Source: Terriglobia bacterium
Lineage (GTDB): Bacteria > Acidobacteriota > Terriglobia > 20CM-2-55-15
DNA: 64,000 bases
Direction of reading: 5' to 3'
Assembly (NCBI GenBank): GCA_965198225.1
Contig: CBDAOY010000009.1
Span: 544,001-608,000 of the forward strand
Part shown: piece after piece, positions 10,343 to 60,183 of the stretch
How the letters are laid out: every line of letters begins with the position of its first letter
How positions within the stretch are numbered: position 1 is the first letter of the stretch
The notes under the pieces: model-generated
The model's input: only the letters and a program-made list of their open reading frames with translations
What the model was told of the DNA's origin: nothing
The model's database searches: none
Translations under genes and position numbers: made by a program

Positions 10343-10383
10343 TGGAATCTCCTCAATCTCTCTCAAACTCGGTTGCAACCATC

Positions 10384-18367: not shown

Positions 18368-18395
18368 TAAAGGTTTGATCTAAAACATCCGATGA
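18368..18395 (+). promoter_or_regulatory. Sigma28-type promoter of the hybrid kinase
   Basis: TAAA-N16-TCCGATGA; it overlaps the ORF-track ATG, so the true start is downstream. Confidence 0.7.
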
Positions 18396-18484
18396 GTACG
18401 AACGTAATGTCGTATCTGGTTCCATCAACGCCACAGGCGGCGACTCCGCCGTGGGTGGAGCCGCCAGCGCCGGAGCTGGACTTC

Positions 18485-22155: not shown

Positions 22156-23064
22156 ATGGCGCGAAAGAAGAGACACGAGGAGCACGCCAACCACGAACGG
22201 TGGCTGGTGTCCTATGCGGATTTCATTACCCTGCTCTTCGCCTTCTTCGTCGTCATGTTCGCGGCGTCCAACGCCGACGAGCAGAAGGCCGGAAAGGTCG
22301 CCCAGGCGGTCGAAATGGCGTTCTCGGAGCTGTCGGTGTTCAGCCCCTCCGGCAAAGTATTTCCATTGTACGATACGGGAGGTCTGCCGTCCGACAACAT
22401 GAGCATCATCGGTAACCTGCACTCGGGTTTCACCCAGACACAAGTGGTTGCGGCTGGCCGCGGTCACGGCGAGGGTGAAGGCAAATACGACATCGAAGCC
22501 GTCCAGGAACGACTCGAGAACCTGCTCGGTCAGGAGATAGCCGAGGGACAGGTCCGGATGAATATCGACGAACGCGGCTTGACGATCAGTCTGGCGGAGG
22601 CTGGTTTCTTCGATCCCGGCTCGGCGGTGATTCAGCGCAAGGCGCTGCCGGTCGTCGACGGGATCGCCGGAAAGCTGCGGGATCTTCCCTGGGATGTTCG
22701 CGTCGAAGGACACACCGACGACATTCCTATCAAAACCGCCCAGTTTCCCTCGAACTGGGAGTTGTCGACGTCCAGGGCGACTTATGTTCTCCAGCACCTG
22801 ATCTCGAGCAGTCAGGTTCCACCAGAACGACTCTCGGCAGTCGGATATGGCCAGTACCGACCCGTCGCCTCCAACTCCACGCGGGAGGGCCGGGGCCTGA
22901 ACCGACGCGTCGACATCGTGGTGCTCAGCACGACGGCTCAAGCACTCGAACCAAAGGCAATGCCCGAGAGCGGCGAAGCGAGCGAGGTGGACCAGTCGGC
23001 CCGCTCAGGTGCAGTCGAACCCGCCCCCGAGACCAGCTCCGTGCATGCCGCCAGTAGTCCGTAG
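22156..23064 (+). CDS. motB: Flagellar stator protein MotB
   Basis: WLVSYADFITLLFAFF; OmpA-like domain with EGHTD, NWELS..RA and NRRVDI. Confidence 0.95.
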   Translation: MARKKRHEEHANHERWLVSYADFITLLFAFFVVMFAASNADEQKAGKVAQAVEMAFSELSVFSPSGKVFPLYDTGGLPSDNMSIIGNLHSGFTQTQVVAAGRGHGEGEGKYDIEAVQERLENLLGQEIAEGQVRMNIDERGLTISLAEAGFFDPGSAVIQRKALPVVDGIAGKLRDLPWDVRVEGHTDDIPIKTAQFPSNWELSTSRATYVLQHLISSSQVPPERLSAVGYGQYRPVASNSTREGRGLNRRVDIVVLSTTAQALEPKAMPESGEASEVDQSARSGAVEPAPETSSVHAASSP

Positions 23065-30048: not shown

Positions 30049-31419
30049 TCAATTAAGGACCTTGAAGGTTTGAAGGGACGGATCGGCGGCACCCTTAAGT
30101 ACAGCCCCGCTGGCCTTCATACATTGCAAGTACTCAATAACCTCCAGGGAGACGATTTCTCCAGGAGCAATGATGGGCGCGCCGGGTGGATACGTCGCCA
30201 CGCTCTCACCCGAGATCTTCCCGACGGCGTCTTTAATAGGCACAGGCTGCTTGGTCGAGAACTTCCCTACACGGGGAGCTACTGCGATTTCGGGAAGAGC
30301 CGGCGGTGGCGGTGCGACAACGCGCTGCTTGTGCGGGCTCCCGTCGGCTATACCCCTGAGAGCGCGAAAGAGAGCATGGAGATCCTCCTCAGTGGTACCG
30401 GGAGTGAGAAGGAAAAGAACGTGTTGGAGCGAAGCCATTTCAGGGTAAATCTTTTCTCGGTGAAGGCGGCGCTCAAAATCGAAGCCCGTGAGACCCGTTC
30501 CGGAAACATCCAGGGTAATTCGGGTCGAGTCGAAATCCACAAAGCCCGGCCGCACCTGATCGTGACCAAAGCACGTCACCCCCAGCAAACCTCGGGATGC
30601 TTCCCGGAACGCTGCAGCACTTTCGATGGTTTCGCTCCAGAGCGTTTCTCCTTCTTCGACGAGCTGCCCGACACCGAGTTCGATCGAGGCCAGGATGGGG
30701 TAGGAGAAAGAGGTGCTGACAAGTCCCAGTTCGTTAACCTGCTCATAGAGCGATTCGATAAACTGTTCGTTTCCCACAAGGAGAAGACTCCCTTGAGAAA
30801 GCGCACTCGCGACTTTATGAGTGGACTGCGTAACAAGGTCCGCACCCATGTCCTCGGCTCCGGTGGGCAGGGACTTGCAAAAGTGAAAGTGAGGGGCATG
30901 CGCCGCATCAACTACCACTGGAAGTCCGCGCTCGTGAGCCAGCGAGATGATTTCGGCGAGTTCACCGACGATGCCGAAGTAGTTGGGTGAAGTCAGGAAA
31001 ACGCAGTCGACCGGCTCTCTGCCGAGTACCTCCGTGAAACCAGCCAAAGTCGGTCCCAGAGAAAGGCCGAGATCGGAGTCGTACTCGGGCACAAGGTAGA
31101 CCGGCTCCAGGCCACCCTGAACCATGGCCGCAGTCACTGACGTGTGAGCATCCCGGTTGACGAGGACACGGCCGCCCGCTGGACAAGCGCTGAGCAGCGC
31201 CAGGGTGTTCAGCGTGGTCGTTCCCTGCGTGGAGGGGAAGCTCCAGGCAACATCATACGCGTCAGCCAGTTGACGTTTGAGCCGCTGTAGAGGCTTATCG
31301 CCGTGCCACGTAAAGAGGCTGCCCAGCTGGGCAACCGAGATACTGTGGTCGAGCTCACACGCTCCCGCAAGGCGCTCCCAGCCTTGACGGAAGATCTTTT
31401 CCTGCGATGCGGTCAACAT
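30049..31419 (-). CDS. PLP-dependent Orn/Lys/Arg decarboxylase family protein
   Basis: NRDAHTSV, TSPNYFG, VDAAH, QSTHK (PLP lysine), STSFSYPILASI and YPPGAP motifs. Confidence 0.9.
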   Translation of the reverse strand: MLTASQEKIFRQGWERLAGACELDHSISVAQLGSLFTWHGDKPLQRLKRQLADAYDVAWSFPSTQGTTTLNTLALLSACPAGGRVLVNRDAHTSVTAAMVQGGLEPVYLVPEYDSDLGLSLGPTLAGFTEVLGREPVDCVFLTSPNYFGIVGELAEIISLAHERGLPVVVDAAHAPHFHFCKSLPTGAEDMGADLVTQSTHKVASALSQGSLLLVGNEQFIESLYEQVNELGLVSTSFSYPILASIELGVGQLVEEGETLWSETIESAAAFREASRGLLGVTCFGHDQVRPGFVDFDSTRITLDVSGTGLTGFDFERRLHREKIYPEMASLQHVLFLLTPGTTEEDLHALFRALRGIADGSPHKQRVVAPPPPALPEIAVAPRVGKFSTKQPVPIKDAVGKISGESVATYPPGAPIIAPGEIVSLEVIEYLQCMKASGAVLKGAADPSLQTFKVLN

Positions 31420-31584
31420 TTACCTTAATCGAAAGCTCCGCCCGCCGCGGTGTCCCGGGGTCGCGAATGTCGACATACAAGACGCAATCAGCGTTATGGA
31501 AGAGCGCTGTCTCTGGTGTCGTGCCGCCTGTCCTCAGATCAGACATTTGTGGCCCCCTTCGTTCGAGTTTGATACTTAACCTAT

Positions 31585-31611
31585 GTATCGGTCGACACTT
31601 CCTGAACTTTA
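31585..31611 (-). promoter_or_regulatory. Sigma28-like promoter upstream of the decarboxylase
   Basis: TAAA-N15-ACCGATAC on the minus strand. Confidence 0.5.
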
Positions 31612-32062
31612 GACTCGATTGTCCAAGTTTCTGGACTTTCGGGACCCAACCTCTCCCGTCTTACGATGGCAGTCCATGCTTAAGGTCCCGGTTTCGTTCG
31701 ACTTAAAAGACTCCATACGTCCAGATGTTGACCCGAGTGAGGCTGAAAGCGTCAAGGCCCTGACTCCATTCCGGATGCGGCCACCGAACCCGCGGCTCCT
31801 CCAAACCCCGTTTGAGTCTGGATCGGCATCTTGAACAGAGCGCCGCCCACATGGACCCAGCCGCCGCGTATCCATTTGAAAATAAGACCAATTCAGAAGA
31901 TCTCATTCCCGCCTCGGCCCCCGGGAGATCCGCATTCTCCTGAGCCGATCCGTTCAAGGTGACTGAGGCGGTTGCCGTAACGGGGACCTCTGCGCCGATG
32001 GAATCTCAATTGCCACCTTCAGCCGCGGAGCATTAGGTGGAATGAATTTCGGAGGTATTTCA

Positions 32063-34099
32063 ATGAGGTACGTGATGAGGATCAGACGAGCACTCAGTGT
32101 CATCTTGCTTATGGGGTGCTCAACCCTTGGCTGGGCCCAGAACGGTGAATTGCAACAAGACTCTCCAATCGAGCTTTCCGGTCTTAGCCTCGAGGAATTG
32201 CTCGAGTTGAGAATCGATTCTGTCTACGGGGCTTCCAGGCACAACCAAAAAGTAACCGAGGCGCCTTCGTCTGTGACGATCGTCACCGCGGACGACATTC
32301 AGAAATACGGCTACCGCACGCTTGCAGACATCTTGCGAAGTGTCCGGGGCTCTTATGTCACGAACGACCGGAACTACAGCTTTCTGGGTGTGCGAGGTTT
32401 CAACCGACCGGGAGACTACAATGCGCGCATCCTGCTGCTCGTCGACGGTCATCGACTCAACGACAATATCTTTGGCGGTGCGCTGATCGGCACCGAATTC
32501 CCGTTGGATGTCGATCTCATCGAGCGGTTGGAGATCATCCGTGGTCCCAGCTCTTCCCTTTACGGTTCCAGTGCGTTTTTCGGCGTCATCAACGTCATTA
32601 CCAAGGATCTGAAAGGAGTGCAGGCTGCGGGCTCGGTGGGCAGCCTTCGCACCGGCGAAGGCCGACTCAGTTATGGCCAGACGTTCGGAAGCGGCCTGGA
32701 AGTGATGCTTTCCGGTTCAGCTTATGACAGCCGGGGACACAAGCGCCTGTACTTTAAGGAATTCGATGCTCCCGGGACCAACAACGGTATTGCGGAAAAC
32801 GTCGACTCCGATGAGTTCAAGAAATTCTTCGGCAAACTGAAGTTCGCCAATTTCACCCTGCAAGGAATGTATGGGGCAAGAGACAAGGACATTCCCACGG
32901 CTTCGTTCGGAACTGTATTCAATGACCCGCGCTCTCGAACCCTCGAAAAGGTAGGGTATGTTGACCTGCAGTACCGGCGTGAGCTCGGCAGCACATGGGA
33001 TCTCTCGTCCCGCGTCTATTTCGACCGTTATGGTTATGACGGGGACTACATATACGATCTTTCAGAAGATGAGAACCCCTTCCTGGTTGTGTACAAGGAC
33101 TTTGCCCGGGGAGGTTGGTGGGGATCAGAGCTGAGACTCACCAAGCGTGCGGAAAAACATACCGTCACTGTGGGTTCAGAATACCGCGACGACTTCCGCC
33201 AGGATCAGTTCAACTACGATGAAGATCCCTTCTTCTCGTACCTGGATGACAAACGCGACCGCAGGAACTGGGCATTCGACATCCAGGATGAATTCAGGCT
33301 GCATGACAAGCTGACCTTCAATCTCGGAGTGCGCTACGATCACTACGATTCTTTCGGCGGAACGACCAATCCCCGAGTTGGGTTGATTTACAATCCGTAC
33401 AAAGCGACGACGCTGAAGATTCTCTACGGCCAGGCGTTCAGGGCACCCAACGCCTACGAGCTCTATTGGACGCAGAGCGACATCGCGAAGGCCAATCCGA
33501 CGCTGCGACCTGAGACCAACAAAACCTCTGAGGTAGTCCTGGAGCACTATCTGAACGATGGCACTCGCCTGTCCGCGACCGGCTTCTACTACAGAATCAA
33601 GGATCTCATCACGCAGCAGACTGATCCTCTGGACGAACTCCTCGTCTACAACAACGTCGAGTCGATTAACGCCAAGGGATTTGAGCTGGAAGTCGAGCGG
33701 GAATGGTCTACCGGTCTGCTGGGTCGATTCAGCTACACGTTCTCCGACATCCGCAACGAACTTACGGGTTCAGGTCTCACTAATTCGCCGAAGCATCTGG
33801 CTCACTTCAATCTCATCATGCCGGTCGCAAACGAATCGATGTTTGCGGGCATCGAGGTCCGGACCATGAGCAAGAGAAGAACAATCGCCGGCAATTTCAC
33901 GGACAGTGTTCTTGTTCCGAACGTGACGATTTCCACCAGCAAGCTCCCGAAGAGACTGGAGCTCTCGGCCGGCGTGTACAACTTGTTCGGCAAGAAGTAC
34001 GGCGACCCGGGGTCTGAAGAACACCCGCCGGACGTCATCGCACAGGATGGGCGGAGCTTTCGAGTGAAGCTCACCTGGACATTTCCGATTGAGAACTGA
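32063..34099 (+). CDS. TonB-dependent receptor (type associated with YfiR-like modules)
   Basis: Signal peptide, LSLEELLEL, EAPSSVTIVT, ERLEIIRGPSSSLYG..GVINVIT and terminal beta-strand; GGAGG SD. Confidence 0.92.
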   Translation: MRYVMRIRRALSVILLMGCSTLGWAQNGELQQDSPIELSGLSLEELLELRIDSVYGASRHNQKVTEAPSSVTIVTADDIQKYGYRTLADILRSVRGSYVTNDRNYSFLGVRGFNRPGDYNARILLLVDGHRLNDNIFGGALIGTEFPLDVDLIERLEIIRGPSSSLYGSSAFFGVINVITKDLKGVQAAGSVGSLRTGEGRLSYGQTFGSGLEVMLSGSAYDSRGHKRLYFKEFDAPGTNNGIAENVDSDEFKKFFGKLKFANFTLQGMYGARDKDIPTASFGTVFNDPRSRTLEKVGYVDLQYRRELGSTWDLSSRVYFDRYGYDGDYIYDLSEDENPFLVVYKDFARGGWWGSELRLTKRAEKHTVTVGSEYRDDFRQDQFNYDEDPFFSYLDDKRDRRNWAFDIQDEFRLHDKLTFNLGVRYDHYDSFGGTTNPRVGLIYNPYKATTLKILYGQAFRAPNAYELYWTQSDIAKANPTLRPETNKTSEVVLEHYLNDGTRLSATGFYYRIKDLITQQTDPLDELLVYNNVESINAKGFELEVEREWSTGLLGRFSYTFSDIRNELTGSGLTNSPKHLAHFNLIMPVANESMFAGIEVRTMSKRRTIAGNFTDSVLVPNVTISTSKLPKRLELSAGVYNLFGKKYGDPGSEEHPPDVIAQDGRSFRVKLTWTFPIEN

Positions 34100-34215
34100 A
34101 ATGTCCATCGCTTTCAGACGATGGACGTTCAGCTGTTGCGAGTACTTACCGGCGAAGTCTTCGAGCCTGCAAATGGCCGACGGATTTTGCAAAACCGCTC
34201 AATCAAATCGGGAAC

Positions 34216-34797
34216 GTGAATACGATGAGAAGCGTTGAACCACGATGGCCGATTGCACTACTGATGGCAGTGCTGCTGCTGTACGGTAGCGCGTTTGGCC
34301 AGACCAGACTCCCAGTCGATCTGGAAACCATGATCCTGCTGCGGGCACTACCCTACGACCGCAACCTGAAGCAACGTGCCGAGGGCGGAATCCATATTGC
34401 AGTGGTTACCAAGAACGACGACCGGACGAGCACCGAGATCGCAAGCGCCTTCCGGAATGCCGGCAAGGACGGAGTAAGCGGCCTTCCGGTAGAGGTCAGC
34501 GTCGTTCCTTTCGAATCGACCGCCCAGCTCATGGATCTGATCGACGACATAGGCTTCAACCTGCTCTACATTCATCCGTCTGTGGAGACAGCGCTGTCAG
34601 CGATCCAGGAAGCGGCGCGAAGCAAAAAAATTCCATCGGTCGGCGGCACGAAAGAGATCGTCGAAAAGGGTGCTTCGCTCGGAGTGTACGTTGTGGACGG
34701 GGTCCCCAAGCTGGTCGTGAACATAAAGACATCGCGGCTCGAGGGGATGGATTTCTCCGCAGATCTCCTGGGTATCGCGACGGTGATCAGAGAGTAA
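34216..34797 (+). CDS. YfiR/HmsC (DUF4154)-like periplasmic protein
   Basis: Signal peptide; ILLRALPYDRNL and C-terminal KLVVNIKTSRLEGMDFSADLLGIA resembling the YfiR family end; follows the TonB receptor. Confidence 0.75.
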   Translation: MNTMRSVEPRWPIALLMAVLLLYGSAFGQTRLPVDLETMILLRALPYDRNLKQRAEGGIHIAVVTKNDDRTSTEIASAFRNAGKDGVSGLPVEVSVVPFESTAQLMDLIDDIGFNLLYIHPSVETALSAIQEAARSKKIPSVGGTKEIVEKGASLGVYVVDGVPKLVVNIKTSRLEGMDFSADLLGIATVIRE

Positions 34798-34874
34798 GAC
34801 GGATTCGATCGAATAGCCAGGCGCAATGAGCCGATCGTTGCCCACTATGCTGTACACGAAAACAATCGAGGTTG

Positions 34875-36818
34875 ATGGTGCCTGACGAGAGTCTGAACGC
34901 TTCGGAGAACCCCGCATCGGGAGAACCGTCCGTCACACCGACTGAAACCCTGACCTCGGAATCGGCCCAGTCGAGCACCGGGTTCGACATCGACATCAGC
35001 GATCCAGACCTGTTGGGCGATTTCATAACGGAGTGTCGGGAACACATCGAAAACGCCGAGGCTGCTCTGCTGGCTCTGGAAACGAACGAAGAAGACACCG
35101 AAGCGGTTAGCACTATCTTTCGCGCTTTCCACACGATCAAGGGTACGTCCGCTTTCCTCGGGCTCGGAGGTATGTCCGACCTGGCCCACCGTTCCGAGTC
35201 GTTCTTGAACCGTGTTCGGGAGCACGAGATACAGTTGACCGGAGGCTACGCCGATCTGGCGCTGTTTTCAGTAGATATGCTCAAGGGTCTACTGCAATCG
35301 CTCCAGACCGCATTGGGTGGCGAACCCATGATCAAGCCCGACGGCTACGATGACCTGATGCTCCTGCTCTCTGATCCGGAAGGCGGGGGGATCTCTGCCG
35401 ACGATCGAGACGACTTGCCTCGGCTCGGCGATATCCTGGTTCATCAGGCCAAGGTCGACCGCGAGGAGATCGAGGCTGTTGTCGCGGACCAGGGTGACGA
35501 GCCGGTTGGCGTCGCGCTCGTCAGGTCGCAGGCTGCATCCGTCACGGACGTCGCCAAAGCGTTGCGCGTGCAGCGGCAAATGTCGCAGCCGGCAAAGGCC
35601 GGAACCGCGGCCACCACAGAATCCTCGGTCCGGATACGCACCAACCATTTGGACCGCCTCATTGACATGATCGGTGAGATGGTAATCGCCCATTCGATGG
35701 TTTCTCAAGACCGTACCGTCGTTCTTGGCCCCCGCCAGGAACTGGCCAAGAAAGTTGCTCACACGGGCGAAATCGTTCGCGAGCTGCAGGATCTGAGCAT
35801 GTCGATGCGAATGGTTCCGCTCCGGGCTGCCTTCCAGAAAACAAGCAGGTTAGTAAGGGATCTCGCTCGCAAGAATTCAAAACTGGCCAATCTCATCACA
35901 GAGGGTGAAGACACCGAGATTGATCGGAAAATGGTCGAAGGCCTCAACGATCCTCTCGTGCACATGATTCGAAATGCACTCGACCACGGCATTGAGCTGC
36001 CTGAGGAACGCAAGCGGCTCGGCAAACCCGCGGCGGGGACCGTCAGGCTGGCCGCGTACCATTCGGGCGGCAATGTTGTGATCGAGATTCAGGATGACGG
36101 CAAGGGGCTGGCCCGCGACAGGATCATCGAGAAAGCGTTGTCGAAGGGGCTGATCGAATCCGACAGAGGTATGTCCGACAACGATGTGGCCAGGCTCATA
36201 TTCGAACCCGGTTTCTCGACCGCTAAAAAGCTGACCGACCTGTCCGGCCGCGGCGTTGGAATGGATGTGGTCAAGAAAGGCATCGAAGCTCTGAGAGGCC
36301 GCGTTGATGTTTCCTCACGGCCAAACGAAGGCTGCACCTTTACGATGAACCTGCCGATGACCCTGGCCATTATCGACGGCATGCTCGTGAAGGTCGGCGG
36401 TCATCGCTATATCGTCCCCACTGTAAACATCCGCCTGAGCTTGCGGCCTGCGCCCGACGTCCTGCCGACCATTGCCGGGCGAGGCGAAATCGTGATGCTC
36501 CGCGGCAAGCCGATCGCGATGATTCGACTGCACCGCATGTTCAACATCGATGGAGCCGTCGAAGACCCCACCGAAGGGCTCATTGTGGTCGTGGAAGAAG
36601 GCAAGAGGCAATGTGCGCTCCTCGTGGATGAACTGCTGGGGCAGCGGCAGGTGGTCGCAAAATCTCTTGGGGATGGTATCGGCACAGTCCGTGGGATCTC
36701 CGGTGGGGCTATCCTCGGCGATGGCCGCGTCGGCCTGATCCTGGACCCGTCCGAGATCGTTGGACTGGCCGGGCAGGGGGCCTATGACACCGATAGTTCG
36801 GTTGCGGTCTTGAACTGA
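34875..36818 (+). CDS. cheA: Chemotaxis histidine kinase CheA
   Basis: FRAFHTIKG (Hpt), LDRLIDMIGEMV, HMIRNALDHGIE, DDGKG, SGRGVGMDVV and CheW-like end GAILGDGRVGLILD. Confidence 0.96.
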   Translation: MVPDESLNASENPASGEPSVTPTETLTSESAQSSTGFDIDISDPDLLGDFITECREHIENAEAALLALETNEEDTEAVSTIFRAFHTIKGTSAFLGLGGMSDLAHRSESFLNRVREHEIQLTGGYADLALFSVDMLKGLLQSLQTALGGEPMIKPDGYDDLMLLLSDPEGGGISADDRDDLPRLGDILVHQAKVDREEIEAVVADQGDEPVGVALVRSQAASVTDVAKALRVQRQMSQPAKAGTAATTESSVRIRTNHLDRLIDMIGEMVIAHSMVSQDRTVVLGPRQELAKKVAHTGEIVRELQDLSMSMRMVPLRAAFQKTSRLVRDLARKNSKLANLITEGEDTEIDRKMVEGLNDPLVHMIRNALDHGIELPEERKRLGKPAAGTVRLAAYHSGGNVVIEIQDDGKGLARDRIIEKALSKGLIESDRGMSDNDVARLIFEPGFSTAKKLTDLSGRGVGMDVVKKGIEALRGRVDVSSRPNEGCTFTMNLPMTLAIIDGMLVKVGGHRYIVPTVNIRLSLRPAPDVLPTIAGRGEIVMLRGKPIAMIRLHRMFNIDGAVEDPTEGLIVVVEEGKRQCALLVDELLGQRQVVAKSLGDGIGTVRGISGGAILGDGRVGLILDPSEIVGLAGQGAYDTDSSVAVLN

Positions 36819-36873
36819 GGGGCACAGCAAACGCCGTATGGCAAAACAACTCGAAACAACGAACACCTGAAGT

Positions 36874-37413
36874 ATGACGATGGATAACCAGACTGCTGAA
36901 ACACTCACGCAAGAAAGAGAAACCGAAGGAACCGTGGCGAGCACCGCGGAGCCGGGGAAAGCCGGAGGCAAGTTCCTCAACTTCTTCCTCGAGCGGGAAG
37001 AGTACGGCATTGAGATCCTCAAAGTGCGCGAGATCATCGGAACGATGACGATCACCCCGGTTCCACGAACGCCGGACTACATGCGCGGCGTCATCAACCT
37101 TCGCGGCACGATCATACCGGTGGTGGATCTGAGGCTGAAACTCGATATGGAGTCCACCCACAGCGAAGATGGCTGCATCATCGTGGTCGAGGCCCAAGGT
37201 GTCCAGATGGGCATCGTCGTCGATAGGGTATCGGAAGTTCTCGACATTAAGGGAGAAGACATCGAGAACGCACCAACGTTCGGCCCGCAGGTGAATACCG
37301 ACTATGTACTCGGCATAGGTAAGGCCAACGACGGGGTCAAACTCCTGCTGGACATCGACAAAGTCCTGTCGCCCGGCGAGATAATCGACATCCGCAAGAC
37401 GACAACCCGATAG
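36874..37413 (+). CDS. cheW: Chemotaxis adaptor CheW
   Basis: EYGIEILKVREII, GVINLRGTIIPVVDLR and GIVVDRVSEV motifs. Confidence 0.96.
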   Translation: MTMDNQTAETLTQERETEGTVASTAEPGKAGGKFLNFFLEREEYGIEILKVREIIGTMTITPVPRTPDYMRGVINLRGTIIPVVDLRLKLDMESTHSEDGCIIVVEAQGVQMGIVVDRVSEVLDIKGEDIENAPTFGPQVNTDYVLGIGKANDGVKLLLDIDKVLSPGEIIDIRKTTTR

Positions 37414-37450
37414 TGATCAAGTGAAAAGGTCTTCAATTAGGAGAAAGACG

Positions 37451-39510
37451 ATGTTTCAACGCTTTCACGATCTGCCGATCAAATGGAAGCTCGTTCTAAC
37501 CATCTCGTTGCTTGTCGGAACGATTGCCCTTTTTGTCTCGCTCTATTTTCCGGCCCAGCAAGAGCGGATTGCCGTGCGGGGACTGGAGAGCAAGGCCATC
37601 AACGTGGCCAAGATGATGGCATACATTTCCAGCACTGCCGTGGAATTCGCCGACGTTGCTTCGATCCAGAGGTTGTTTAGCGCGGTCGAGAACGACCCGG
37701 ATTTCATCTACGCCCAGGTTCTACTGACCGACGGATCTACGCTGGCCTCCCACTCGCCCAAAGGGCGCCTGGGACCGTCGATCGGCGACATCCCCGAGAG
37801 CGCACGACGATTTTCCTCGAAGACGGGATGCTGAACGTTGCCAGCCCGATTGTCTCCCTGGACAGGCAAGTCATCGGGATGATGCAGATCGGTCTATCGC
37901 TGGCCGACATTCAAAGCGAAGTGGCCTTGAGCATTTGGGCGACCCGCCTGGTGGGTCTCGGCATCATGGCCCTGGGTCTTCTCGTTGCCTTCGGCGTCGG
38001 TCAGATCATCCGGAAACTTCTCCTGCAAGTGACCGAAGTGGCCGAGGCGGTTGCCAGCGGGGATCTGACCTGTGAGGTCGTTATTCATTCCCGCGACGAG
38101 ATCGGCACGCTAGCGGTTTCCTTCAAGGCCCTGATCGACTACATCAAGGGTCTCGCAGCGGCATTGGAGGCGCTCAGCAAGAACGATCTCAACGTCAACA
38201 TCAAACCCAAGTCGGAGCAGGACATTCTGTCGAAGAACATCATCCGCACCATCGACACGCTGCGTGATCTGCTGGTTGAGACCAGGGGTCTGACAAAGGC
38301 TGCTCAAGAAGGGAGGCTGACCGAGCGCGGGAACGCCGACAGGTTCCAGGGCGCCTTCCGGGAACTGATAGCGGGCATGAACGACACGATGGACGCCGTC
38401 GTCGCCCCGATCAGTGAAGCATCCGAAGTCCTCCAGAGTGTAGCGGCACATGACCTCACTGCTCGAATGGAGGGAGAATACGAGGGCGAATTTGCCCGAA
38501 TCAAGGACGGTTTGAACTCCGCGGTGGTCAATCTCGACGACGCGCTCGGACAAGTTACGGTGGTGGCGGAACAGGTGAGTGCGGCTTCCGCCGATATCAG
38601 CAGCGGCGCCGGGTCCCTCTCCGGGCGCGCTAACGACCAGGCCGCTTCGTTAGAGGAAGTGTCCGGCAGTCTGCATCAATTGGCTTCAATGACGGATCAG
38701 AACGCAGCCAGCGCGAAGGAAGCCAAAGACCTGTCCGAGATCACACGCCAGAGCACCGAATTAGGCGTGGAGAATATGGAGCGCCTGTCATCGGCCATCG
38801 ACCTGATAAAGGGTTCTGCGGACGCGACTGCGAAAATTGTCAAAACGATCGATGAGATCGCATTCCAGACGAATCTGCTTGCATTGAACGCCGCAGTCGA
38901 AGCCGCCCGGGCCGGTGACGCCGGTAAAGGCTTTGCGGTAGTGGCTGAAGAGGTTCGAAACCTGGCAATGCGAAGCGCCGAGGCCGCCAAGAACACTGCC
39001 ACTCTGATCGACGAATCGGTGGAGAACGCCAAAGGCGGCGTCGCCACCAACGAGGAAGTCCTGAAGAACCTCGTGAAGATCAACGATCTGACAAAGGGGG
39101 CCACCGAGATGATGGCTCGGATCGCGGCGGCTTCCGACCAGCAGAGTTCGGGAATCGAACACATCAATTCGGCGGTCGACAACATGAACCACACGACGCA
39201 GCAGGTGGCGGCCAATGCGGAAGAATCGGCGAGTGCGGCGGAAGAACTTTCAGCGCAAGCGGAAGAAATGAGGAATATGGTATCCGCCTTCGTGTTGAGC
39301 GCGAAGGGCACCCACACGCAGACTCGCACCTCGAACGTTCGATCGATCCTGGAATCCGCGCACAGTTACACAAAGCGCGGAACTCTTCCGGCAGGCACGG
39401 AGACGACGGATAAGGGGAACGGCCAGCCTTCTTTGAATGCGAGCCATCCCGGGGAACTGATTCCCTTCGACGAGTCCGACGACGATCTGGACACTCTACA
39501 GAACTTCTAG
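37451..39510 (+). pseudogene. Methyl-accepting chemotaxis protein (TM-periplasmic sensor-TM-HAMP-HAMP-MA), frameshifted near 37800
   Basis: [20 protein letters not shown] and C-terminal TLQNF; removing GC from AGCGCACG joins 37451-37834 to 37828-39510. Confidence 0.88.
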
Positions 39511-39610
39511 CCCGAATCTATGGCCGGGTGTTGGCGCGAAACGGCCGTTGACCACCAGCCACTCTGCGCTTCGGGCTGGTGACTGTTATTGATTACGCCA
39601 CAGGGAAGCT

Positions 39611-40475
39611 ATGCCCTATGCCCGGGCAATGAAGCAAATGCTAGCGACACTAGACCAGCAGCAGTTTGAAAGAATCCAGCAGATGGTGTACCAGCGGTCT
39701 GGTATCAACTTGCTGTCGGGGAGGGAGGACTTGGTGCAATCTCGATTGATTGTCCAAGCGTCTGGCCTCGGTGGGAATGGACAGCTACGAGCAGTACGTA
39801 AAGTACGTCGACACCGACCCGTCCGGCAAGGAAATGGCTGCGATGATAGATGTTCTGACCACGAACAAGACGGGCTTCTTCCGCGAGATCCAGCACTTCG
39901 AGTACCTCGGAAAGATATCAAGGGACCTGCTAAAGAAAGGACGACGGGTGCGGATCTGGAGCGCCGGGTGTTCCTCGGGCGAGGAACCCTTCTCGGTTGC
40001 CATGCTGCTGCTCGAGCAGGTGCCCGAACTGGACCCGCAGAACGTACAGATCCTGGCCACCGATATCTCCGCGCGAATGCTGGCAAGGGCGCGCGACGGC
40101 GTTTATACGCAGCAAGCGTTGAGCGGTGTGCCGCCCACGCTTTTGAGGAAATACTTCACCCGCATTGACACGGCGCCATCGCGGGTGTACCGGATCAACG
40201 ACAACGTGAGATCGATCGTCAAGTTTGCTCGCTTGAACCTGATAGGAAGTTGGCCGATGAAAGGCCCTTTCGACCTGATCCTATGCCGCAACGTGATGAT
40301 CTACTTCGACGGACCCACCGCCGACCGGTTGGTGCACCGGTTGTGGGCAATGCTGACACCGGGCGGGCATCTTCTTGCCGGGCATGCGGAACATGTCCGA
40401 GATCTGTCGGAAAGGCTTCCCTGCGTGCAGCCGGCCGTTTACGTGAAAGGCACTGTTTGGGATAGTTTAACTTAG
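39611..40475 (+). pseudogene. cheR: Chemotaxis methyltransferase CheR, frameshifted at 39744-39752
   Basis: TTNKTGFFRE, WSAGCSSGEEP, LATDIS and CRNVMIYF motifs; GATTGATTG is a 4-nt duplication whose removal gives LVQSRLSKRL. Confidence 0.9.
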
Positions 40476-40493
40476 TGAGTCTCTGAGGAGCGA

Positions 40494-40998
40494 ATGGCGG
40501 TACACATCGTAGACGTTGCGCAACGCTCCCCAGATTGCCGACATGAAGGTATCCGACGTCAAGGGGGACGTGCTCATCACGCACGCGCTGGGAAGCTGTC
40601 TGGGCATCACGGTATACGATCCCGAGGCCCATGTTGGGGGGCTGCTGCACGTCATGCTGCCGCTTTCCACGATCGACCCGAAAAGAGGAAAAGAGAACCC
40701 TTGCATGTTCGTCGACACAGGAGTACCGAAGTTGTTTCTCGAATGCTACAAGACCGGAGCGAGAAAAGAGAGGCTCCACGTAAAGGTCGCCGGGGGAGCC
40801 TGCCTGCGCAGTGAGAAGGAAGGCGACTACTTTCAGATCGGCAAGAGAAACTTCGTCCTGCTCAAGAAACTTTTCTGGAAGAATGGCGTGCTGTTGAGAG
40901 CCCACGACGTCGGCGGCAGTCAGTCGAGAACGGTGTCCCTGGACATCGCAAGTGGGAAAGTCGAAGTGAAAATCAGTGGCAAGTCAAATACGCTGTAG
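40494..40998 (+). pseudogene. cheD: Chemoreceptor glutamine deamidase CheD with a 19-nt insertion near the 5' end
   Basis: LGSC, GGLLHVMLP, VAGGA, IGKRN and DVGG motifs; deleting 40520-40538 gives MAVHIVDVADMKVS from the SD-led ATG 40494. Confidence 0.88.
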
Positions 40999-41035
40999 AG
41001 CCCGAGTGGCCTGCGGCCGGAGGTAGGGAGGCACA

Positions 41036-41464
41036 ATGGCGCTGGACGTTCTCGTCGTCGACGACAGTTCCGTAATGCGGTCGATAATCATCAGGACCAT
41101 ACGGTTGAGCGGCTTTCCTCTGGGTGAGGTTCACGAGGCTGCCAACGGGCAAGAAGGACTGCAGATGCTGGAGGAGCACAGCGTGGATCTTGCGTTGGTG
41201 GACCTGAACATGCCCGTAATGGGCGGAGAAGAGATGATCGACAAAATTCGGGGGAATGCAGCGATGGCAGATTTTCCTCTAATCGTCATCTCGAGCGAGG
41301 GCAGTGACACCCGAATCGAGAGGCTTCGGAAAAAAGAGGTCCGCTTCCTCCAAAAGCCATTCATGCCCCAGGCTGTTAGGGAAACCATCGTAGACGTCAC
41401 AGGAGTGTCAGATGAGCAATTCGCTGGAGAAGGAACTCCGCAAAGCGGCGGCCTTGACTTTTGA
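41036..41464 (+). CDS. cheY: CheY-like single-domain response regulator
   Basis: VVDDS, DLNMP, SSE and KPF motifs; within the che operon. Confidence 0.88.
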   Translation: MALDVLVVDDSSVMRSIIIRTIRLSGFPLGEVHEAANGQEGLQMLEEHSVDLALVDLNMPVMGGEEMIDKIRGNAAMADFPLIVISSEGSDTRIERLRKKEVRFLQKPFMPQAVRETIVDVTGVSDEQFAGEGTPQSGGLDF

Positions 41465-41888
41465 AGACCTCGGTTTCATGTGCCCGAGTTTGAAACTGGA
41501 CGAACAGCAGTGCACCGCGCCGCTGGAAGCGGCCGTGTGCGTGGAATTTGAGGGACCATCCTGCGGAAGGCTGGAATTGAAGCTTTACGGTAACCTTCTT
41601 GCCACTGTCGTGGCCAACATGCTGGGTGAAGACGAAACGCAGCCCGAGTGCCGGCAGCACGACGCGTTGCGAGAGATCGCCAACGTTGTCTGTGGCAACT
41701 TGTTGCCGGCAATAGCCGGCTCGAGGGCGGTTTTCGATCTGGGTACCCCCCGACTGCTCGATGGAGCAGCCTCTTCCGGAAAGAAGGAGTCACCCGAAGC
41801 AGAGGTACGACTGGGACTGGAGGATGGCCGGGCCGATCTGTTTTTCTTCACCGACGACAACACGGTCTTCAGCCGGGCCGAGGTGTGA
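41412..41888 (+). CDS. cheX: CheX-family phosphatase
   Basis: NMLG..DALREIANVVCGN (ExxN). Confidence 0.85.
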   Translation: MSNSLEKELRKAAALTFEDLGFMCPSLKLDEQQCTAPLEAAVCVEFEGPSCGRLELKLYGNLLATVVANMLGEDETQPECRQHDALREIANVVCGNLLPAIAGSRAVFDLGTPRLLDGAASSGKKESPEAEVRLGLEDGRADLFFFTDDNTVFSRAEV

Positions 41889-41903
41889 AGGGGTATCTTT
41901 CGA

Positions 41904-42878
41904 TCACCCGGTGCGCAGAACGACAATCTTTCCCGCCGGGCAGGGCGCGATAGTCATCTCGACATCGAGGCGCCGCGGCTTCTCGGCCAGCAGGAACGCC
42001 AGCTTGCCTTTTGGGGCGGACTCCAGCTCGCAAACCTCCGTTAGCCGGAGACGCGGCGCGAAGTTGGCGTTGAGCAGGGAACCCGCAATATTCAGGACTT
42101 CGTAGACGTTTGATCGGATTTCTCCGGTGATCACCGCGGCCTTCAGATCTTCGAGGATGACTCCGGGCGCGAATCCCGACAGGGCGCCTGAAGCCGCAAG
42201 AGCCAGTGTCGGGTCGAGTACAATCGCGGCGGACGGCGCAGACACGGGGTCGGTCTGGTAGAGACCGACGAAAAAAGGCCAACCCGCTTTACCCAGCAGT
42301 GTCGTTTGCTTGGACGCCTTTGTTTCCTTGAGCTTACCCATCGTGAGCGTCGTGAAGAGCTCGACGATGTCCTCTTGCTCGGGAAACGGGAGGTTCATCA
42401 CGCTCCCGGCCAGCATCACCCTCAGCTGGACCAGGTTTCCATCGATCAGAGTGGGACGAGTCTCAGATAGCGCTGCCCGCGGGCAATGCTCCGCCGGATC
42501 CCCGTTTATCCACACCGGCAAGCCTACCTTCAACGACGGGTAATCAACGTTCAACTGTTCTTTGACGCCGCCCGCAATGATGTTGATCATTTCGCCAACG
42601 CCATCGGCGACATCCTGTCCGTCAATCTCCTCGTCTTCGTCGGCGCCCAGCAGGGCTTTGGCCAGTTTCGTGCAGGTTTCCACACCCGCGATGATGCTCA
42701 GCCGCAAGGTCACCCTCTCCGACCCGACGGCGATCGAAACGCGCCTGTGAAGTTCCGTTGTGGAATCGGCGGGGGGATCGACTTTCTCGGCGGGAGTCAT
42801 GTCCAGACCCATCGCCGTGGCACAGAGATCCTTAGTGGACTGCAGCGCTGCCTCGAGGACCGGTTGAATCGCGCTCAT
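41904..42878 (-). CDS. CheX-domain protein with a second CheC/CheX-like C-terminal domain
   Basis: DGVGEMINIIAG in the N-terminal half and NVYEVLNIAG in the C-terminal half; coupled to the upstream cheY. Confidence 0.7.
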   Translation of the reverse strand: MSAIQPVLEAALQSTKDLCATAMGLDMTPAEKVDPPADSTTELHRRVSIAVGSERVTLRLSIIAGVETCTKLAKALLGADEDEEIDGQDVADGVGEMINIIAGGVKEQLNVDYPSLKVGLPVWINGDPAEHCPRAALSETRPTLIDGNLVQLRVMLAGSVMNLPFPEQEDIVELFTTLTMGKLKETKASKQTTLLGKAGWPFFVGLYQTDPVSAPSAAIVLDPTLALAASGALSGFAPGVILEDLKAAVITGEIRSNVYEVLNIAGSLLNANFAPRLRLTEVCELESAPKGKLAFLLAEKPRRLDVEMTIAPCPAGKIVVLRTG

Positions 42879-43270
42879 TTGTGTAACAGGGCCTTTTGCG
42901 TGAGTTTTGAAGAATAATCTCCGCCCAGCTCGGCTTCGAAGGTCTCCGCCGTAAAGGGCTTCGTGATCACTGCCGCGGCCCCCTCGCGGTAGGCGAGAGA
43001 GTGCATTTCGTCGGTCGCTTCCGAGGTGATGAACACGAACGGAATGTCCTTGCCTCGCGCGCGGACAGCCCTGAGGAGATCAATGCCGTCCAGACCGGGC
43101 ATGTTCCAGTCGGTGAGAACCAAATCGGGGGGGGACATGTCGATCTGTTCGAGCGCGGCCTGCCCGTCGTCCGCCTGTTCGATCGTATGACCCTCAAAAC
43201 CTGCCTGACGCAGCGTGCGAATGATGATTTTGCGCATAACCCTGCTGTCGTCAACGATGAGTATATTCAT
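42875..43270 (-). CDS. cheY: CheY-like response regulator
   Basis: IVDDS, DWNMP, ITSE and KPF motifs. Confidence 0.88.
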   Translation of the reverse strand: MNILIVDDSRVMRKIIIRTLRQAGFEGHTIEQADDGQAALEQIDMSPPDLVLTDWNMPGLDGIDLLRAVRARGKDIPFVFITSEATDEMHSLAYREGAAAVITKPFTAETFEAELGGDYSSKLTQKALLHK

Positions 43271-49628: not shown

Positions 49629-52516
49629 CTAGAATCGCCACCTTGCGCCCAGACGGAGCAACCGCGGCGACAGAATCGACGTCGGTTGCAGGTACCGCGA
49701 ACCATGGCGCTCCTGGATGCTGGTCACCGTGTTGGCGTTCATCACGTTGTCCAGATCGAGGACGGTTTCAATCGAGTGTTGATCGTTGATGTCGAACGTC
49801 TTCGAAATCCGCTGATCCCAGATCATCACGAAGGGCAGCCGGCCGATCTGCCTCTCCGGCTCGATGGTCACGAGGCTGCGCAGCGCATTGCGTATCCGCA
49901 CCTCCCGGTCGTACCAGTCCTGCGTCTGACCACGAAGCAACGTCGAAATCTTCAGGCCGTACGGCAGCGCGTACACGCCGTGGAGCTTCAGGACGCTGTC
50001 CCACTCAGAAACCTGCTGCGCGTTGACATACAACAGATCGTTCGGATTCTGGGCGTCGTTGGCCCGCTCCTTCCGGTAATTGGAGGTGTAGGAAAGCATA
50101 GCCCACCATCGGTCGGCCGGCCGCCTGCTGAACGTGAACTCGTACCCGGTGTAGGTGTCCTGCCCTTCAGCCCCGATTGACTGGACGACGTGCTTGAAAT
50201 CCGTTCCGAAGTTCGGATGGTTCCGCGGCACCGACCAGATCTGGACCATGCCGTCATCGACGGTCCCTGTAACGTTGTCTCGACCGGGGTCGATGCCGAA
50301 CACGACATCTGTGTAGGCTTCGTACGGTAGGAGAGGGTTGACGATCTTCTGTTGGCGTTTTGTCGGATCTTGCGAAAGATAGCCCACCATCGGTCGGCCG
50401 GCCGCCTGCTGAACGTTGAACCGGACACTGTAATCGACCGGCCGATGCCCTGTAACGTTGTCTCGACGGGGTCGATCGAACACCGACGGTGTGACGACTC
50501 GATCTTGCGGACCGGTGTAAATGGCGTCTTCAGGTCGTCCGCGAGGCTATTGAACATGGGACGTTCGGTGCCTCTGATGGAAATCAGCGCCCGCTGGTCC
50601 GGGGTGTAAGGGATCTCTCCGGCCCAGGCGGCTTCGTCGGGAACCGATGATGAACAGTTCCCGACTGCACAGTATCTTTTCTGGCCGCCGGTCGGTACAG
50701 GGTTGATGCTTCCCGCGCCCGCTCCCGGCAGGATGCCGGGTCCCGAGCCGCTGCCCGCGTACCGGCCGTAGCTGGTTTTCAGAGCAATCCGACCCTGACC
50801 GGTGACGTCATACACCAAAGAGAGCCGGGGCGACCAGGAGTTGTAGATCGGGAACTCCTCCGGCCCCCGGGCCGGACGAATTGCCTTCGTGGCAAACGGT
50901 CCGGTCCCGGGGTTCCCCTGCTCGGGGAGCCACGATGAGTACCGATCCCACCGGAATCCGAAGCTGAGGGTCAGGTTCCGTTTGAGGTTGATCCTGTCGG
51001 TGATGAACCACGCATCGTAGCTCTCTCCGTTCTTCACGAACGATGGATAGTCATAGACGAAGACCGAGTCCGGGTTCGAAAAGAGATCGTCCCCGAACCG
51101 CCTGCTACGGTACCGGTATACCTGCTGGTTCGTGTACCCGAAGATCTCCGTAGCGGTGCTGTAGCCCCATGAACCCGTATAGCCCGTCTTGACTTGGTGA
51201 GAAGTCCCGCCGATGTCCGTAAAAACGCTGTAGTTCGCATCCCACTGCCAGCGCACCGGACGTTCGGCCGACTCCAGGGCGCCGCCCCGGATCTGACCCG
51301 AGTCCCTCATCCGCACCGCATCCGTCCAGGCGTCGGAACGCCGCCAGTAGCCTCCACGTCGGATGGCCGCGTCAAACGTCATCGTCGGGCTAACCAGAAA
51401 CGTCCACTTCAACGTCGGGCCAACTGCCGACCAGGTGTCACGGTTCTGGGTCGCGGTCAGTGGCGTAAAAGCGCTTCCGCGACTGTAAGGCACCCAGCTT
51501 CGTCCGAACTGAGCAGCGGTCTCCAGCCTGTTGTTGTCGTTTACCTGCCAGGTGAGTTTCAAAGCGGGATCCTGCAGCCTGTTCAGGTAATCCTGAGGCT
51601 CGGCACCATTCCGATCATCCACGAAACCATCAAGAACGAGTGAATGGGACGCTTGTCGGTAGGACGCGAAAAACCAGGCCCGTTCCTTCAGGATCGGGCC
51701 CCCGATCTCGGCGGCGAAGTCGGTGTTCGTAAAATCGCGGTTGGGCCGGCCAGATATACCCTGGTCCAGCAGATCCTGGTCGACATTGTTTGACATAAAG
51801 CTGTCGTTGTCCCAGTCCGCGACAACGTTCCCATGAAAGTTGTTGCCGCCGGACTTTGTCACGAAGCTGATCGTCGCGCCCGGATTCGAAAACTCTGCGC
51901 TCTTCGCAGCCAGATTCACCCGCACCTGCTCAAACGATCCGTGGTCCGCCGCGAGCTGGCCCCACATCATTCCATCGACAAAAATCTGGTTGTCGCCGGG
52001 CCGGCCGTAGACCTCGCTACCGTCGGACATGCCGGGAATCATCGTGATCAAACCGGCAAGCCTGCGGCGGTAAGGGATCTCGTCGAACACTCGCCCGTCG
52101 AAGTTCACACCCACCGTTGCCTGTTCCAGGTCCAGCGCCGGCCCCTGGCTCAGCGAAGTGATAATTGCTGGCGCGGTCGTCGCTTCCAGGGTCCCGTTCA
52201 CCCTCGCGATCGCGCCGATCTTCACGCGGACGTCACGGATTTCCAGCGTCTTGAATCCCGGTAAGACGAGCGTCACGGTGAATGTGCCTCCGGGTAGCTC
52301 GGTGAACCGGTAGGCGCCCAGCAGGCTGGTCGTGATCGTCCGGGCGCCGCCGATCAGGGAAGGGCCGGCCAAACGGACTTTTACGCCAGCCAGCGACTCA
52401 CCCGAGTCGTCCATCGCCCGCCCCGTCACAGTACCCGTCGTTTGCGACAAGCTCGGCCCTGTCAGCGCCAGAACCAGCACTACCGAAGCCAGGAGATTTC
52501 GCGTCGAAAACTCCAT
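49629..52516 (-). pseudogene. Oar-like TonB-dependent receptor, frame-broken in a scrambled segment at about 50341-50520
   Basis: Carboxypeptidase-like N-domain, TKSGGNNFHG and IGGPILKERAWFF; C-terminal LGARWRF in a second frame. Confidence 0.85.
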
Positions 52517-56423: not shown

Positions 56424-57011
56424 TCCTAGCAGGAAATTCCTTTACACGGTCACACGGAGAAATCCAGCCACAGATTACAGGGACGACTTCAGCCAGACAG
56501 GTTTCTTCCTATCCGTGCAATCTGTGTAATCCGTGGCCTTATTCTTCTATCCGAGTAATCCCCAGCCAATCCGTGAAATCTCAAAAAAAAGGCGGCCCTA
56601 ATCCACAGGGCCGCCTTCTTCAAAGAACAGGCGATCTGTTGACCGCCCCTGGATGTTAGAACGTACAACTCTGAACTCGTCGTATCGGAAGAATCGGTCG
56701 ATTCTCCTCCGAAGACCCTCTCAAATCCCAATCAGTCCGAGTTCTTTGCGCTCTGCCGCGCAGACTCCTAGCAGGAAATTCCTTTACACGGTCACACGGA
56801 GAAATCCAGCCACAGATTACAGGGACGACTTCAGCCAGACAGGTTTCTTCCTATCCGTGCAATCTGTGTAATCCGTGGCCTTATTCTTCTATCCGAGTAA
56901 TCCCCAGCCAATCCGTGAAATCCGTGTTCAAAAAAAAGGCGGCCCTAATCCACAGGGCCGCCTTCTTCAAAGAACAGGCGATCTGTTGACCGCCCCTGGA
57001 TGTTAGAACGT
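56424..57011. repeat. About 240-bp direct repeat (56424-56664 and 56766-57011)
   Basis: Near-identical copies include the last codons and terminator of the receptor and ATCCGTG-type short repeats. Confidence 0.92.
56930..56967 (-). terminator. Rho-independent terminator of the receptor gene (duplicated at 56583-56620)
   Basis: AAGGCGGCCCT-gtggatt-AGGGCCGCC followed by a T8 run on the minus strand. Confidence 0.85.
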
Positions 57012-59870: not shown

Positions 59871-60183
59871 ACTTTCCTCCACTGCCTCAACAAACGGGAA
59901 GGGCAGTAATAGAAGTGAAGTAGCACAGCATGCACCTGTTTACTGCGTACTTCAGGCATGCTGTTGGTATACAGATCTGTTGGCCGCATTTAATACCGAC
60001 CGGGGGCGGGTGTCAAATCATTTTTGAGGCCGAAATGTCAGTAGTTTAGGGGGAATCTGGAACCACTTCGGCGAGCCCGAAGCTGGAGAATGGCCGGGGA
60101 CAGGGGCATGGCCCGTTGGTGACCAAGCGGAAGCGGCGGTTCGGGGGGCGCCGCTATATCCATGTATCTAATACAAACTATTA

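Follow-up and report, generated by a model that had tools for sequence, protein, structure and literature searches.

Introduction

The closest described counterparts of the locus reported here are YfiBNR (TpbB/AwsXRO) of Pseudomonas aeruginosa and Escherichia coli and HmsCDE of Yersinia. Like this locus, both encode a DUF4154 protein of the YfiR fold that is soluble and periplasmic (putatively so in the present case), an inner-membrane protein in which a CHASE8/PAS-like sensor lies between two transmembrane segments and is followed by a HAMP domain, and, alongside these, an outer-membrane component. A YfiR-YfiN[PAS/HAMP] core joined to histidine-kinase, GGDEF/EAL and methyl-accepting chemotaxis protein (MCP) outputs was noted in silico by Malone 2012 (PMC3375315); its main text describes the divergent Yfi homologues as mostly lacking YfiB and makes no mention of TonB. 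The DNA analysed in the present study (the window) is a stretch of 64,000 nucleotides from a flagellated soil bacterium of the Terriglobia (20CM-2-55-15; assembly GCA_965198225.1, contig CBDAOY010000009.1, positions 544,001-608,000 of the forward strand). It contains a run of nine genes, all on the + strand at 32042-41888, for a TonB-dependent receptor, a DUF4154/YfiR-like protein, CheA, CheW, an MCP, CheR, CheD, CheY and CheX. We propose, with a probability of roughly 0.55, that this cluster is a chemotaxis-output version of the outer-membrane receptor/YfiR-like/CHASE8 sensor module, in which the receptor would control the chemoreceptor by way of the YfiR-like protein.

Results

Composition of the cluster

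Protein families were assigned with Pfam gathering scores and the curated cut-offs of NCBIfam, beside a general family listing at E≤0.01. The first-pass annotation of this DNA had described a co-oriented run of nine genes; Pfam matches recover all of them where it had placed them and on the + strand:

32042..34099, + strand: TonB-dependent receptor, 685 amino acids (Pfam Plug 75 bits, TonB_dep_Rec_b-barrel 161.5 bits)
34216..34797, + strand: YfiR-like, putatively periplasmic protein, 193 amino acids (Pfam DUF4154 36.1 bits, cut-off 24.9)
34872..36818, + strand: CheA (Hpt, H-kinase_dim, HATPase_c and CheW domains)
36874..37413, + strand: CheW (Pfam CheW 127.2 bits)
37421..39510, + strand: MCP, in two open reading frames, 37421-37834 (CHASE8 30.2 bits) and 37828-39510 (HAMP, HAMP_2, MCPsignal 133.7 bits)
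39611..40475, + strand: CheR, in two frames, 39611-~39748 and 39750-40475 (CheR_N and CheR 197 bits)
40516..40998, + strand: CheD (Pfam CheD 95.3 bits)
41036..41464, + strand: CheY-type receiver (Response_reg 72.8 bits)
41412..41888, + strand: CheX phosphatase (Pfam CheX 44.3 bits)

Neighbouring genes are separated by gaps of 8 to 117 nucleotides (nt), and the CheY and CheX frames overlap. A promoter and terminator scan of 31300-42300 returned counts like those of shuffled sequence (5 versus 3.2; 10 versus 11.1) and is uninformative on operon structure.

The arrangement is more than chance, as synteny within the genus and the pairing of DUF4154 with CHASE8 genes both attest. The source genome (G000; 6.4 Mb, 97% complete) contains exactly two DUF4154 and two CHASE8 genes, and these are co-located pair by pair. 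By our arithmetic, a gene would fall within 3 kb of a single given locus with a probability of about 0.001. This two-for-two co-location is the strongest argument within the genome for regarding the YfiR-like protein and the MCP as parts of one system. The cluster is also syntenic throughout in G002 and G003, two of the three other genomes of the genus (G001 to G003), with 64-84% protein identity; in G002 the gap between the yfiR-like gene and cheA is 9 nt.

The second module of the source genome (L001; G000:C9:1120408-1125167, outside the window) consists of a DUF4154 gene, then a CHASE8 hybrid kinase, then a REC-PAS-GGDEF-EAL protein. It passes the NCBIfam cut-offs (NF053591, 140 against 125 bits; NF053592, 220.2 against 194). 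No receptor gene adjoins this pair, and the divergent gene upstream has no assigned family.

The YfiR-like protein

The match to DUF4154 (PF13689) runs from residue 52 to 188, on model positions 19-142 of 143. An AlphaFold2 model of the protein (predicted local distance difference test score, pLDDT, 93.2), compared by Foldseek, resembles the YfiR structures 4yn7, 4zhu, 4yna and 5eb1 at target TM-scores of 0.71-0.77 (0.73-0.77 for 4yn7 and 4zhu; E 2e-05 to 2e-04). Thus, both the family match, above its cut-off, and the modelled fold sustain the earlier assignment of 34216-34797 to DUF4154. Small proteins of the substrate-binding type rank above YfiR in the same comparison, namely 6k1x (E 4.9e-09) and 3lft with L-Trp. 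The N-terminus has a hydrophobic stretch followed by AFGQ, kept in relatives, which is a putative leader; the mature protein contains no cysteine.

Searched against 1.84 billion cluster representatives, a profile of the protein matched 2082 of them at E≤0.001. In an alignment of the clade (A2), 49 of the 50 members match DUF4154, and two also match Pfam ABC_sub_bind. The window protein itself scores 22.9 bits against NF053591 (cut-off 125), and the YfiR-like members at loci L023, L032, L022 and L029 gave no match to that model at 1e-5. By these sequence comparisons, the protein belongs to a clade separate from NF053591.

TonB_C is the domain that binds the TonB boxes of receptors. Two YfiR-like relatives (L058:23-883, which is P0179, and P0108; mutual identity 26%) carry a C-terminal TonB_C fusion; a word search with P0179 found no further fused relative, P0108 having come from the list of profile matches. 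Thin as two proteins are, the fusions hint that the YfiR-like domain may act at the periplasmic face of a receptor. A complex predicted between residues 27-189 of the G002 YfiR-like protein and residues 34-163 of the G002 MCP, its sensor, scored 0.20 and 0.14 (mark 0.32), which counts neither way.

The chemoreceptor sensor

Where intact, the MCP has a first transmembrane segment (~13-33), a 130-residue periplasmic domain, a second transmembrane segment (~164-186), HAMP, HAMP_2 and the MCP signalling domain. The sensor lies narrowly above the Pfam cut-off of 27 for CHASE8 (PF17152, Cache clan), with 30.2 bits in the window, 28.9 in G002 and 28.6 in G003; in the intact G002 and G003 proteins the match spans model positions 6-98 of 102, between the two transmembrane segments and before HAMP. 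Against NF053592, the model for the YfiR-like protein-associated sensor, the intact G002 MCP scores 66.6 bits (cut-off 194) over model positions 2-217 of 223. The structure model of the sensor (pLDDT 78) comprises one long and one short helix together with five strands, and its Foldseek matches include CitA (TM-score 0.66-0.75), WalK, KinD and a LapD-like periplasmic domain. Judged by this model, the sensor is a PDC/single-Cache fold and not a four-helix bundle; with the CHASE8 match, this agrees with the initial suggestion that the N-terminus of the MCP is like that of YfiN-type sensors. A word-based search returned 11 MCPs with this sensor at ≥71% identity, close relatives only, and the next-best sensor matches were kinases at ≤34%. 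Such searches reach close relatives only and say little on distribution (8 YfiR-like proteins, 11 MCPs).

The receptor

At E≤0.01, the family listing gives the receptor no STN or FecA-type N-terminal signalling domain; about 38 residues of mature N-terminus precede the plug. No NCBIfam subfamily is decisive, the best score being that of TonB-hemin (179.7, cut-off 316.85), with B12 at 146.9; NF053590 scores 136.9 (cut-off 645). The genome has 29 Plug and 11 TonB_C matches. The best paralogue of the receptor in its own genome scores only 50 bits. Over residues 46-679 the protein is 35.6% identical to the receptor at L023, where a TonB-dependent receptor, a YfiR-like protein and a CHASE8 kinase are encoded together. 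The sequence LSLEELL precedes the plug (32140-32190, residues ~45-60). It conforms to a motif, [LI]-[SP]-L-[EDG]-[EDQ]-L-L, that lies just upstream of the TonB-box position and is also present in the receptors beside YfiR-like genes at L020, L023, L026, L051, L052 and L054. A scan of 31200-34900 against Rfam gave no match at E≤1, hence no riboswitch clue to the receptor's ligand.

Frame breaks

Two genes of the cluster are broken in the assembly. In the MCP gene, alignment with G002 and G003 reveals a surplus of 2 nt (GA) near 37797-37800. The break falls inside the periplasmic sensor, so that a 137-amino-acid N-terminal piece retains the first transmembrane segment and about two thirds of the sensor; the orthologues are intact in G002 (644 amino acids) and G003 (646), and the window gene has no single open frame leading into its MCPsignal domain. 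We aligned Logan contigs of four public runs to 37400-40500. The surplus is reproduced without any difference in the contigs of X2, X4 and X5, three runs from three studies. Because the same insertion recurs in all three studies, the frameshift is genuine in this lineage, and with the MCP truly frameshifted inside its sensor, the pathway is probably not working in this strain. X4 and X5 also contain a second, diverged strain without the 2 nt, and the MCP frame is thereby restored. The break in cheR, a 4-nt tandem surplus near 39744, is missing from all four runs, and cheR is in frame in both G002 and G003; it therefore most likely stems from misassembly or from a private change. Compared with the public read contigs, the assembly differs by indels of 1, 4 and 13 nt at 39332, 39744 and 40454, and the window consensus may carry small tandem-duplication errors. 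A single X2 contig joins 37813 to 40172, but its 30-letter side and depth of 6 are too weak for a deletion variant to be called.

Genomic setting

The cluster contains the genome's single H-kinase_dim match and its single MCPsignal match; its CheA is likewise the single tblastn match. CheB was not found in the 97%-complete genome; the enzymes of adaptation or termination seen there are limited to CheR, CheD and a pair of CheX-domain proteins. The first 23064 nt of the window contain flagellar genes (FlgK, FlgL, two flagellins, FliS, FliD and MotAB), the window also encodes FliW and CsrA, and FliG is encoded 24 kb upstream of it. Since the sole Che system of the genome and these flagellar genes share the window, the cluster is most likely a flagellar chemotaxis pathway with a single receptor. 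A Che system devoted to an alternative, non-motility function was considered and rejected, this being the sole Che system and lying about 9 kb from motAB. The window's OmpA domain is that of MotB (22156-23064), and no OmpA-family protein is encoded in the cluster.

Two further genes, convergent with the cluster and syntenic with it in G002 and G003, probably belong to the same chemosensory locus:

41904..42878, - strand: CheX-domain protein of 324 amino acids (CheX 41.5 bits)
42875..43270, - strand: CheY-like receiver (Response_reg 95 bits; NF007901 CheY 84.7 bits)

Elsewhere in the window, FliD (8988-10378, - strand) is split into two open reading frames, of 369 amino acids (FliD_N, and FliD_C 1-136) and 94 amino acids (FliD_C 152-235). 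Its orthologues in G002 and G003 lie in open frames of 456 amino acids, and the split reflects a genuine break or else misassembly. The segment 11587-20818, which lies between the flagellin/FliD genes and motAB, encodes glycosyltransferases, NeuB, an ATP-grasp protein and a cytidylyltransferase. It has the appearance of an island for flagellin glycosylation, with a GAF hybrid kinase (18392-20092) embedded in it. On the other side of the cluster, two large outer-membrane proteins with CarboxypepD_reg and OMP_b-brl_4 domains are encoded at 49988-52516 and 57003-59882 (- strand), with two Sel1-repeat proteins of 600 amino acids between them.

Distribution and neighbourhoods

Forty relatives were searched for the YfiR-like protein. 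It was found in three genomes, all of this genus (G000, G002 and G003), apart from one weak match; the fourth genome of the genus, G001, gave no match, and its CheA is only 39% identical. In G003 (L007: 8077-9255, 12634-15026, 17260-18714), cheW and the receptor gene are each interrupted by DDE transposase genes, and an IS21 istA/istB pair separates the receptor gene from that of the YfiR-like protein. These insertions are secure. G003 also has apparent frame changes in cheA and a gap or frame change in cheD, and G002 an apparent frame change in the receptor gene; all are candidate assembly errors. Outside the genus, the nearest CheA proteins (49-50% identity) come from other families and belong to CheW-MCP-CheA-CheR-CheD-CheY clusters without a receptor or YfiR-like gene. 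Because these clusters lack them, and because MCPs with this sensor come from close relatives only, the next-best sensor matches being kinases, the CHASE8 sensor, the YfiR-like gene and the receptor look, on sequence comparison, as though they had been recruited to the Che cluster in this lineage.

More distant neighbourhoods (about 30 loci, L-numbered) were retrieved with the YfiR-like protein alone as the query. Seven contigs were too short for their arrangement to be judged (L045, L046, L049, L050, L055, L057 and L060), and L033 was too weak to use. The others included:

L020, L021, L023 and L032 (L061 has the same layout; L026 has a plug fragment): TonB-dependent receptor, YfiR-like protein, CHASE8 kinase
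L022 and L024: YfiR-like protein, CHASE8-GGDEF protein, no receptor
L030 and L043: YfiR-like protein and kinase, on cut contigs
L029: YfiR-like protein, IS1595 transposase, then MCP-CheR-CheB-CheW-CheW-CheA
L044: CheR...CheA-CheB-YfiR-like protein
L031/L051, L047, L048, L053, L054/L056 and L059: MCP, YfiR-like protein, then a TonB-dependent receptor and/or a pyridoxal phosphate (PLP)-dependent enzyme
L025: neither arrangement; a beta-helix protein downstream

The trio of receptor, YfiR-like protein and CHASE8 sensor is thus a conserved feature in further families of the phylum. In 8 of the 19 metagenome loci (L044, L047, L048, L051, L053, L054, L056 and L059) the YfiR-like gene lies near an MCP or Che gene; L054 and L056 have the same layout, and L031 and L051 seem to be a single sequence. 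A receptor gene directly adjoins the YfiR-like gene at L031/L051, L052, L053 and L054. The order MCP, YfiR-like protein, (receptor), PLP-dependent enzyme (PALP) is seen at L031/L051, L048, L052, L054 and L059, on Vicinamibacteria-type and metagenome contigs; the sensor of the MCP in this arrangement is larger and is not a CHASE8 domain. The adjacency on which the first-pass annotation had staked its proposal does, then, recur: in two of the three other genomes of the genus, and in other lineages, where diverged YfiR-like relatives adjoin MCP or Che genes.

Discussion

One could envision the system as follows. The organism's only chemoreceptor would feed its only CheA-CheW-CheY pathway, with CheR, CheD and CheX providing adaptation and signal termination, and the pathway would most likely steer the flagellum. 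At rest, the soluble periplasmic YfiR-like protein may be bound to the CHASE8 domain of the MCP, fixing it in one signalling state. When the receptor is loaded with ligand, its periplasmic face, presumably the TonB-box region, would capture the YfiR-like protein, in parallel to the sequestration of YfiR by YfiB; the MCP would be released, CheA activity would change, and swimming with it. We infer this relay from the analogy with YfiBNR, from gene context and from the two domain fusions.

Several observations weigh against such a scheme. The cheA and cheW genes (2.6 kb) separate the yfiR-like gene from that of the MCP, whereas in the kinase versions the sensor directly follows the YfiR-like gene. 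All three trio proteins fall far under the NCBIfam cut-offs, and the DUF4154 and CHASE8 matches barely exceed those of Pfam. The receptor appears dispensable for the core, since L022, L024 and the second pair of the source genome do without one. At L048, in the clade with the order MCP, YfiR-like protein, receptor, the MCP has only the second transmembrane segment and HAMP in common with the window MCP, not the sensor, and the closest Che clusters of other families (49-50% CheA identity) have neither receptor nor YfiR-like gene. Selection on the cluster within the genus is itself doubtful, because the MCP is broken here, three insertion sequence elements lie in or next to cluster genes in G003, and the receptor gene appears to change frame in G002. 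Finally, none of the public runs listed as containing this stretch is an RNA run.

This genetic damage to the cluster raises the question of whether the module is being lost from the genus and is functionless in this strain. This possibility, which cuts across the other readings, is a serious one, although we hold it to be somewhat short of an even bet. It would account for the 2-nt insertion found in contigs of three studies, for the transposases in cheW and the receptor gene, the IS21 pair, the cheA frame changes and the cheD gap of G003, for the receptor frame change of G002 and the split FliD of the window, and for the lack of a YfiR-like match in G001, with its distant CheA (39%). However, 64-84% identity without further stops over nine genes argues for recent purifying selection, a co-occurring strain has an intact MCP frame, and the frame changes of G002 and G003 may themselves stem from misassembly, as the cheR break of the window seems to. 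Decay, moreover, bears on present activity and not on the design of the system.

A different division of labour would make the system a ligand shuttle, with the receptor importing a solute across the outer membrane and the YfiR-like protein serving as a small periplasmic binding protein whose loaded or emptied form docks on CHASE8, no contact with the receptor being needed. The system would then resemble chemoreceptors that depend on binding proteins. The precedence of small substrate-binding proteins (6k1x, 3lft) over YfiR in the Foldseek comparison and the ABC_sub_bind matches of two of the 50 A2 members point this way, as does the binding of vitamin B6 or L-Trp by YfiR, reported in PMC4887326. 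The receptor has a full plug and barrel, and the genome's 11 TonB_C matches would likewise suit import. Yet the YfiR fold corresponds to just one half of a binding protein with two lobes, the TonB_C fusions of relatives point to docking on the receptor rather than free shuttling, and neither the Rfam scan upstream nor the receptor's subfamily scores offer a clue to a ligand. We consider a shuttle unlikely.

Still less probable is that the genes are neighbours only, the receptor and YfiR-like protein serving uptake or another sensor and the Che genes standing apart by a lineage-specific accident: the gaps of 117 nt (receptor to yfiR-like gene) and 75 nt (yfiR-like gene to cheA), the lack of both genes and the different gene order in the nearest Che clusters of other families, and the restriction of the YfiR-like gene to this genus among the relatives searched (3 of 40, plus one weak match) would all fit, but the other CHASE8 gene of the genome directly follows its other DUF4154 gene, three genomes share the gene order, the yfiR-like gene and cheA of G002 being 9 nt apart, no other CHASE8-type sensor lies nearby, and diverged relatives are associated independently with MCP or Che genes.

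We therefore return to receptor control of the chemoreceptor through the YfiR-like protein as the preferred reading. In the usual view, a chemoreceptor senses only what has entered the periplasm. If the proposal is true, the cell would steer by substrates bound at its surface. As the sole chemoreceptor and the sole Che pathway of a flagellated Acidobacteriota genome are involved, the whole swimming behaviour would hang on the module. It is tempting to carry the idea further and to picture the receptor as a surface antenna for chemotaxis, in which ligand exposes the TonB-box region, which captures the YfiR-like protein (a contact hard-wired by the TonB_C fusion in some lineages) and so frees the CHASE8 chemoreceptor. 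The cell would then swim towards or away from large or scarce substrates that never freely reach the periplasm, and a third way for TonB-dependent receptors to signal across the envelope would be added, the first that leads into a Che pathway; in this specific form the proposal is speculative and, on balance, unlikely. The trio of receptor, YfiR-like protein and CHASE8 sensor is in any case widespread and catalogued, and the TonB_C fusions, possibly a "Rosetta stone", give a testable idea of how receptor and YfiR-like protein might meet.

The first-pass annotation had presented the locus as an undescribed system. That was too strong, in view of the MCP outputs already noted in silico by Malone 2012 (PMC3375315) and of the NCBIfam models for a receptor/YfiR-like/kinase trio. 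Our literature search nevertheless found no study of that trio or of a YfiR-controlled chemoreceptor.

The comparison with known systems can be drawn as follows. In YfiBNR, the output is the GGDEF cyclase YfiN, the outer-membrane partner is the OmpA/Pal-like lipoprotein YfiB and the yfiN gene is next to yfiR; here, the output is an MCP feeding CheA, with no GGDEF protein in the cluster, the partner is a TonB-dependent receptor of the 22-strand type, and cheA and cheW lie between. YfiR has redox-sensitive cysteines and disulfides. Its crystal entries are titled as oxidised and non-oxidised, whereas the window protein has no cysteine after its leader. The three-part architecture is the same as that of the NCBIfam trio, NF053590 (TOL_0244 receptor), NF053591 (TOL_0243 YfiR-like protein) and NF053592 (sensor kinase). 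The cluster proteins match these models above noise (136.9, 22.9 and 66.6 bits), yet none of the three reaches its cut-off (645, 125 and 194), and the output of the trio is a kinase in place of the MCP. FecA-FecR-FecI likewise uses a TonB-dependent receptor as the signal input for a cytoplasmic response; unlike the FecA type, the window locus has no STN domain and no anti-sigma or extracytoplasmic function (ECF) sigma factor, its proposed relay being a soluble periplasmic protein and its output chemotaxis. The sensor domains of WalK and LapD are each a single PDC/Cache-like domain, and a partner protein (YycH/YycI and LapG, respectively), not a small ligand, sets their state. They share with the MCP sensor a resemblance of fold only, with no sequence family link, and their partners and outputs differ. 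What the cluster has of its own is a sole chemoreceptor, a separate YfiR-like clade with frequent MCP or Che association, relatives fused to TonB_C, and a chemoreceptor gene that is verifiably broken.

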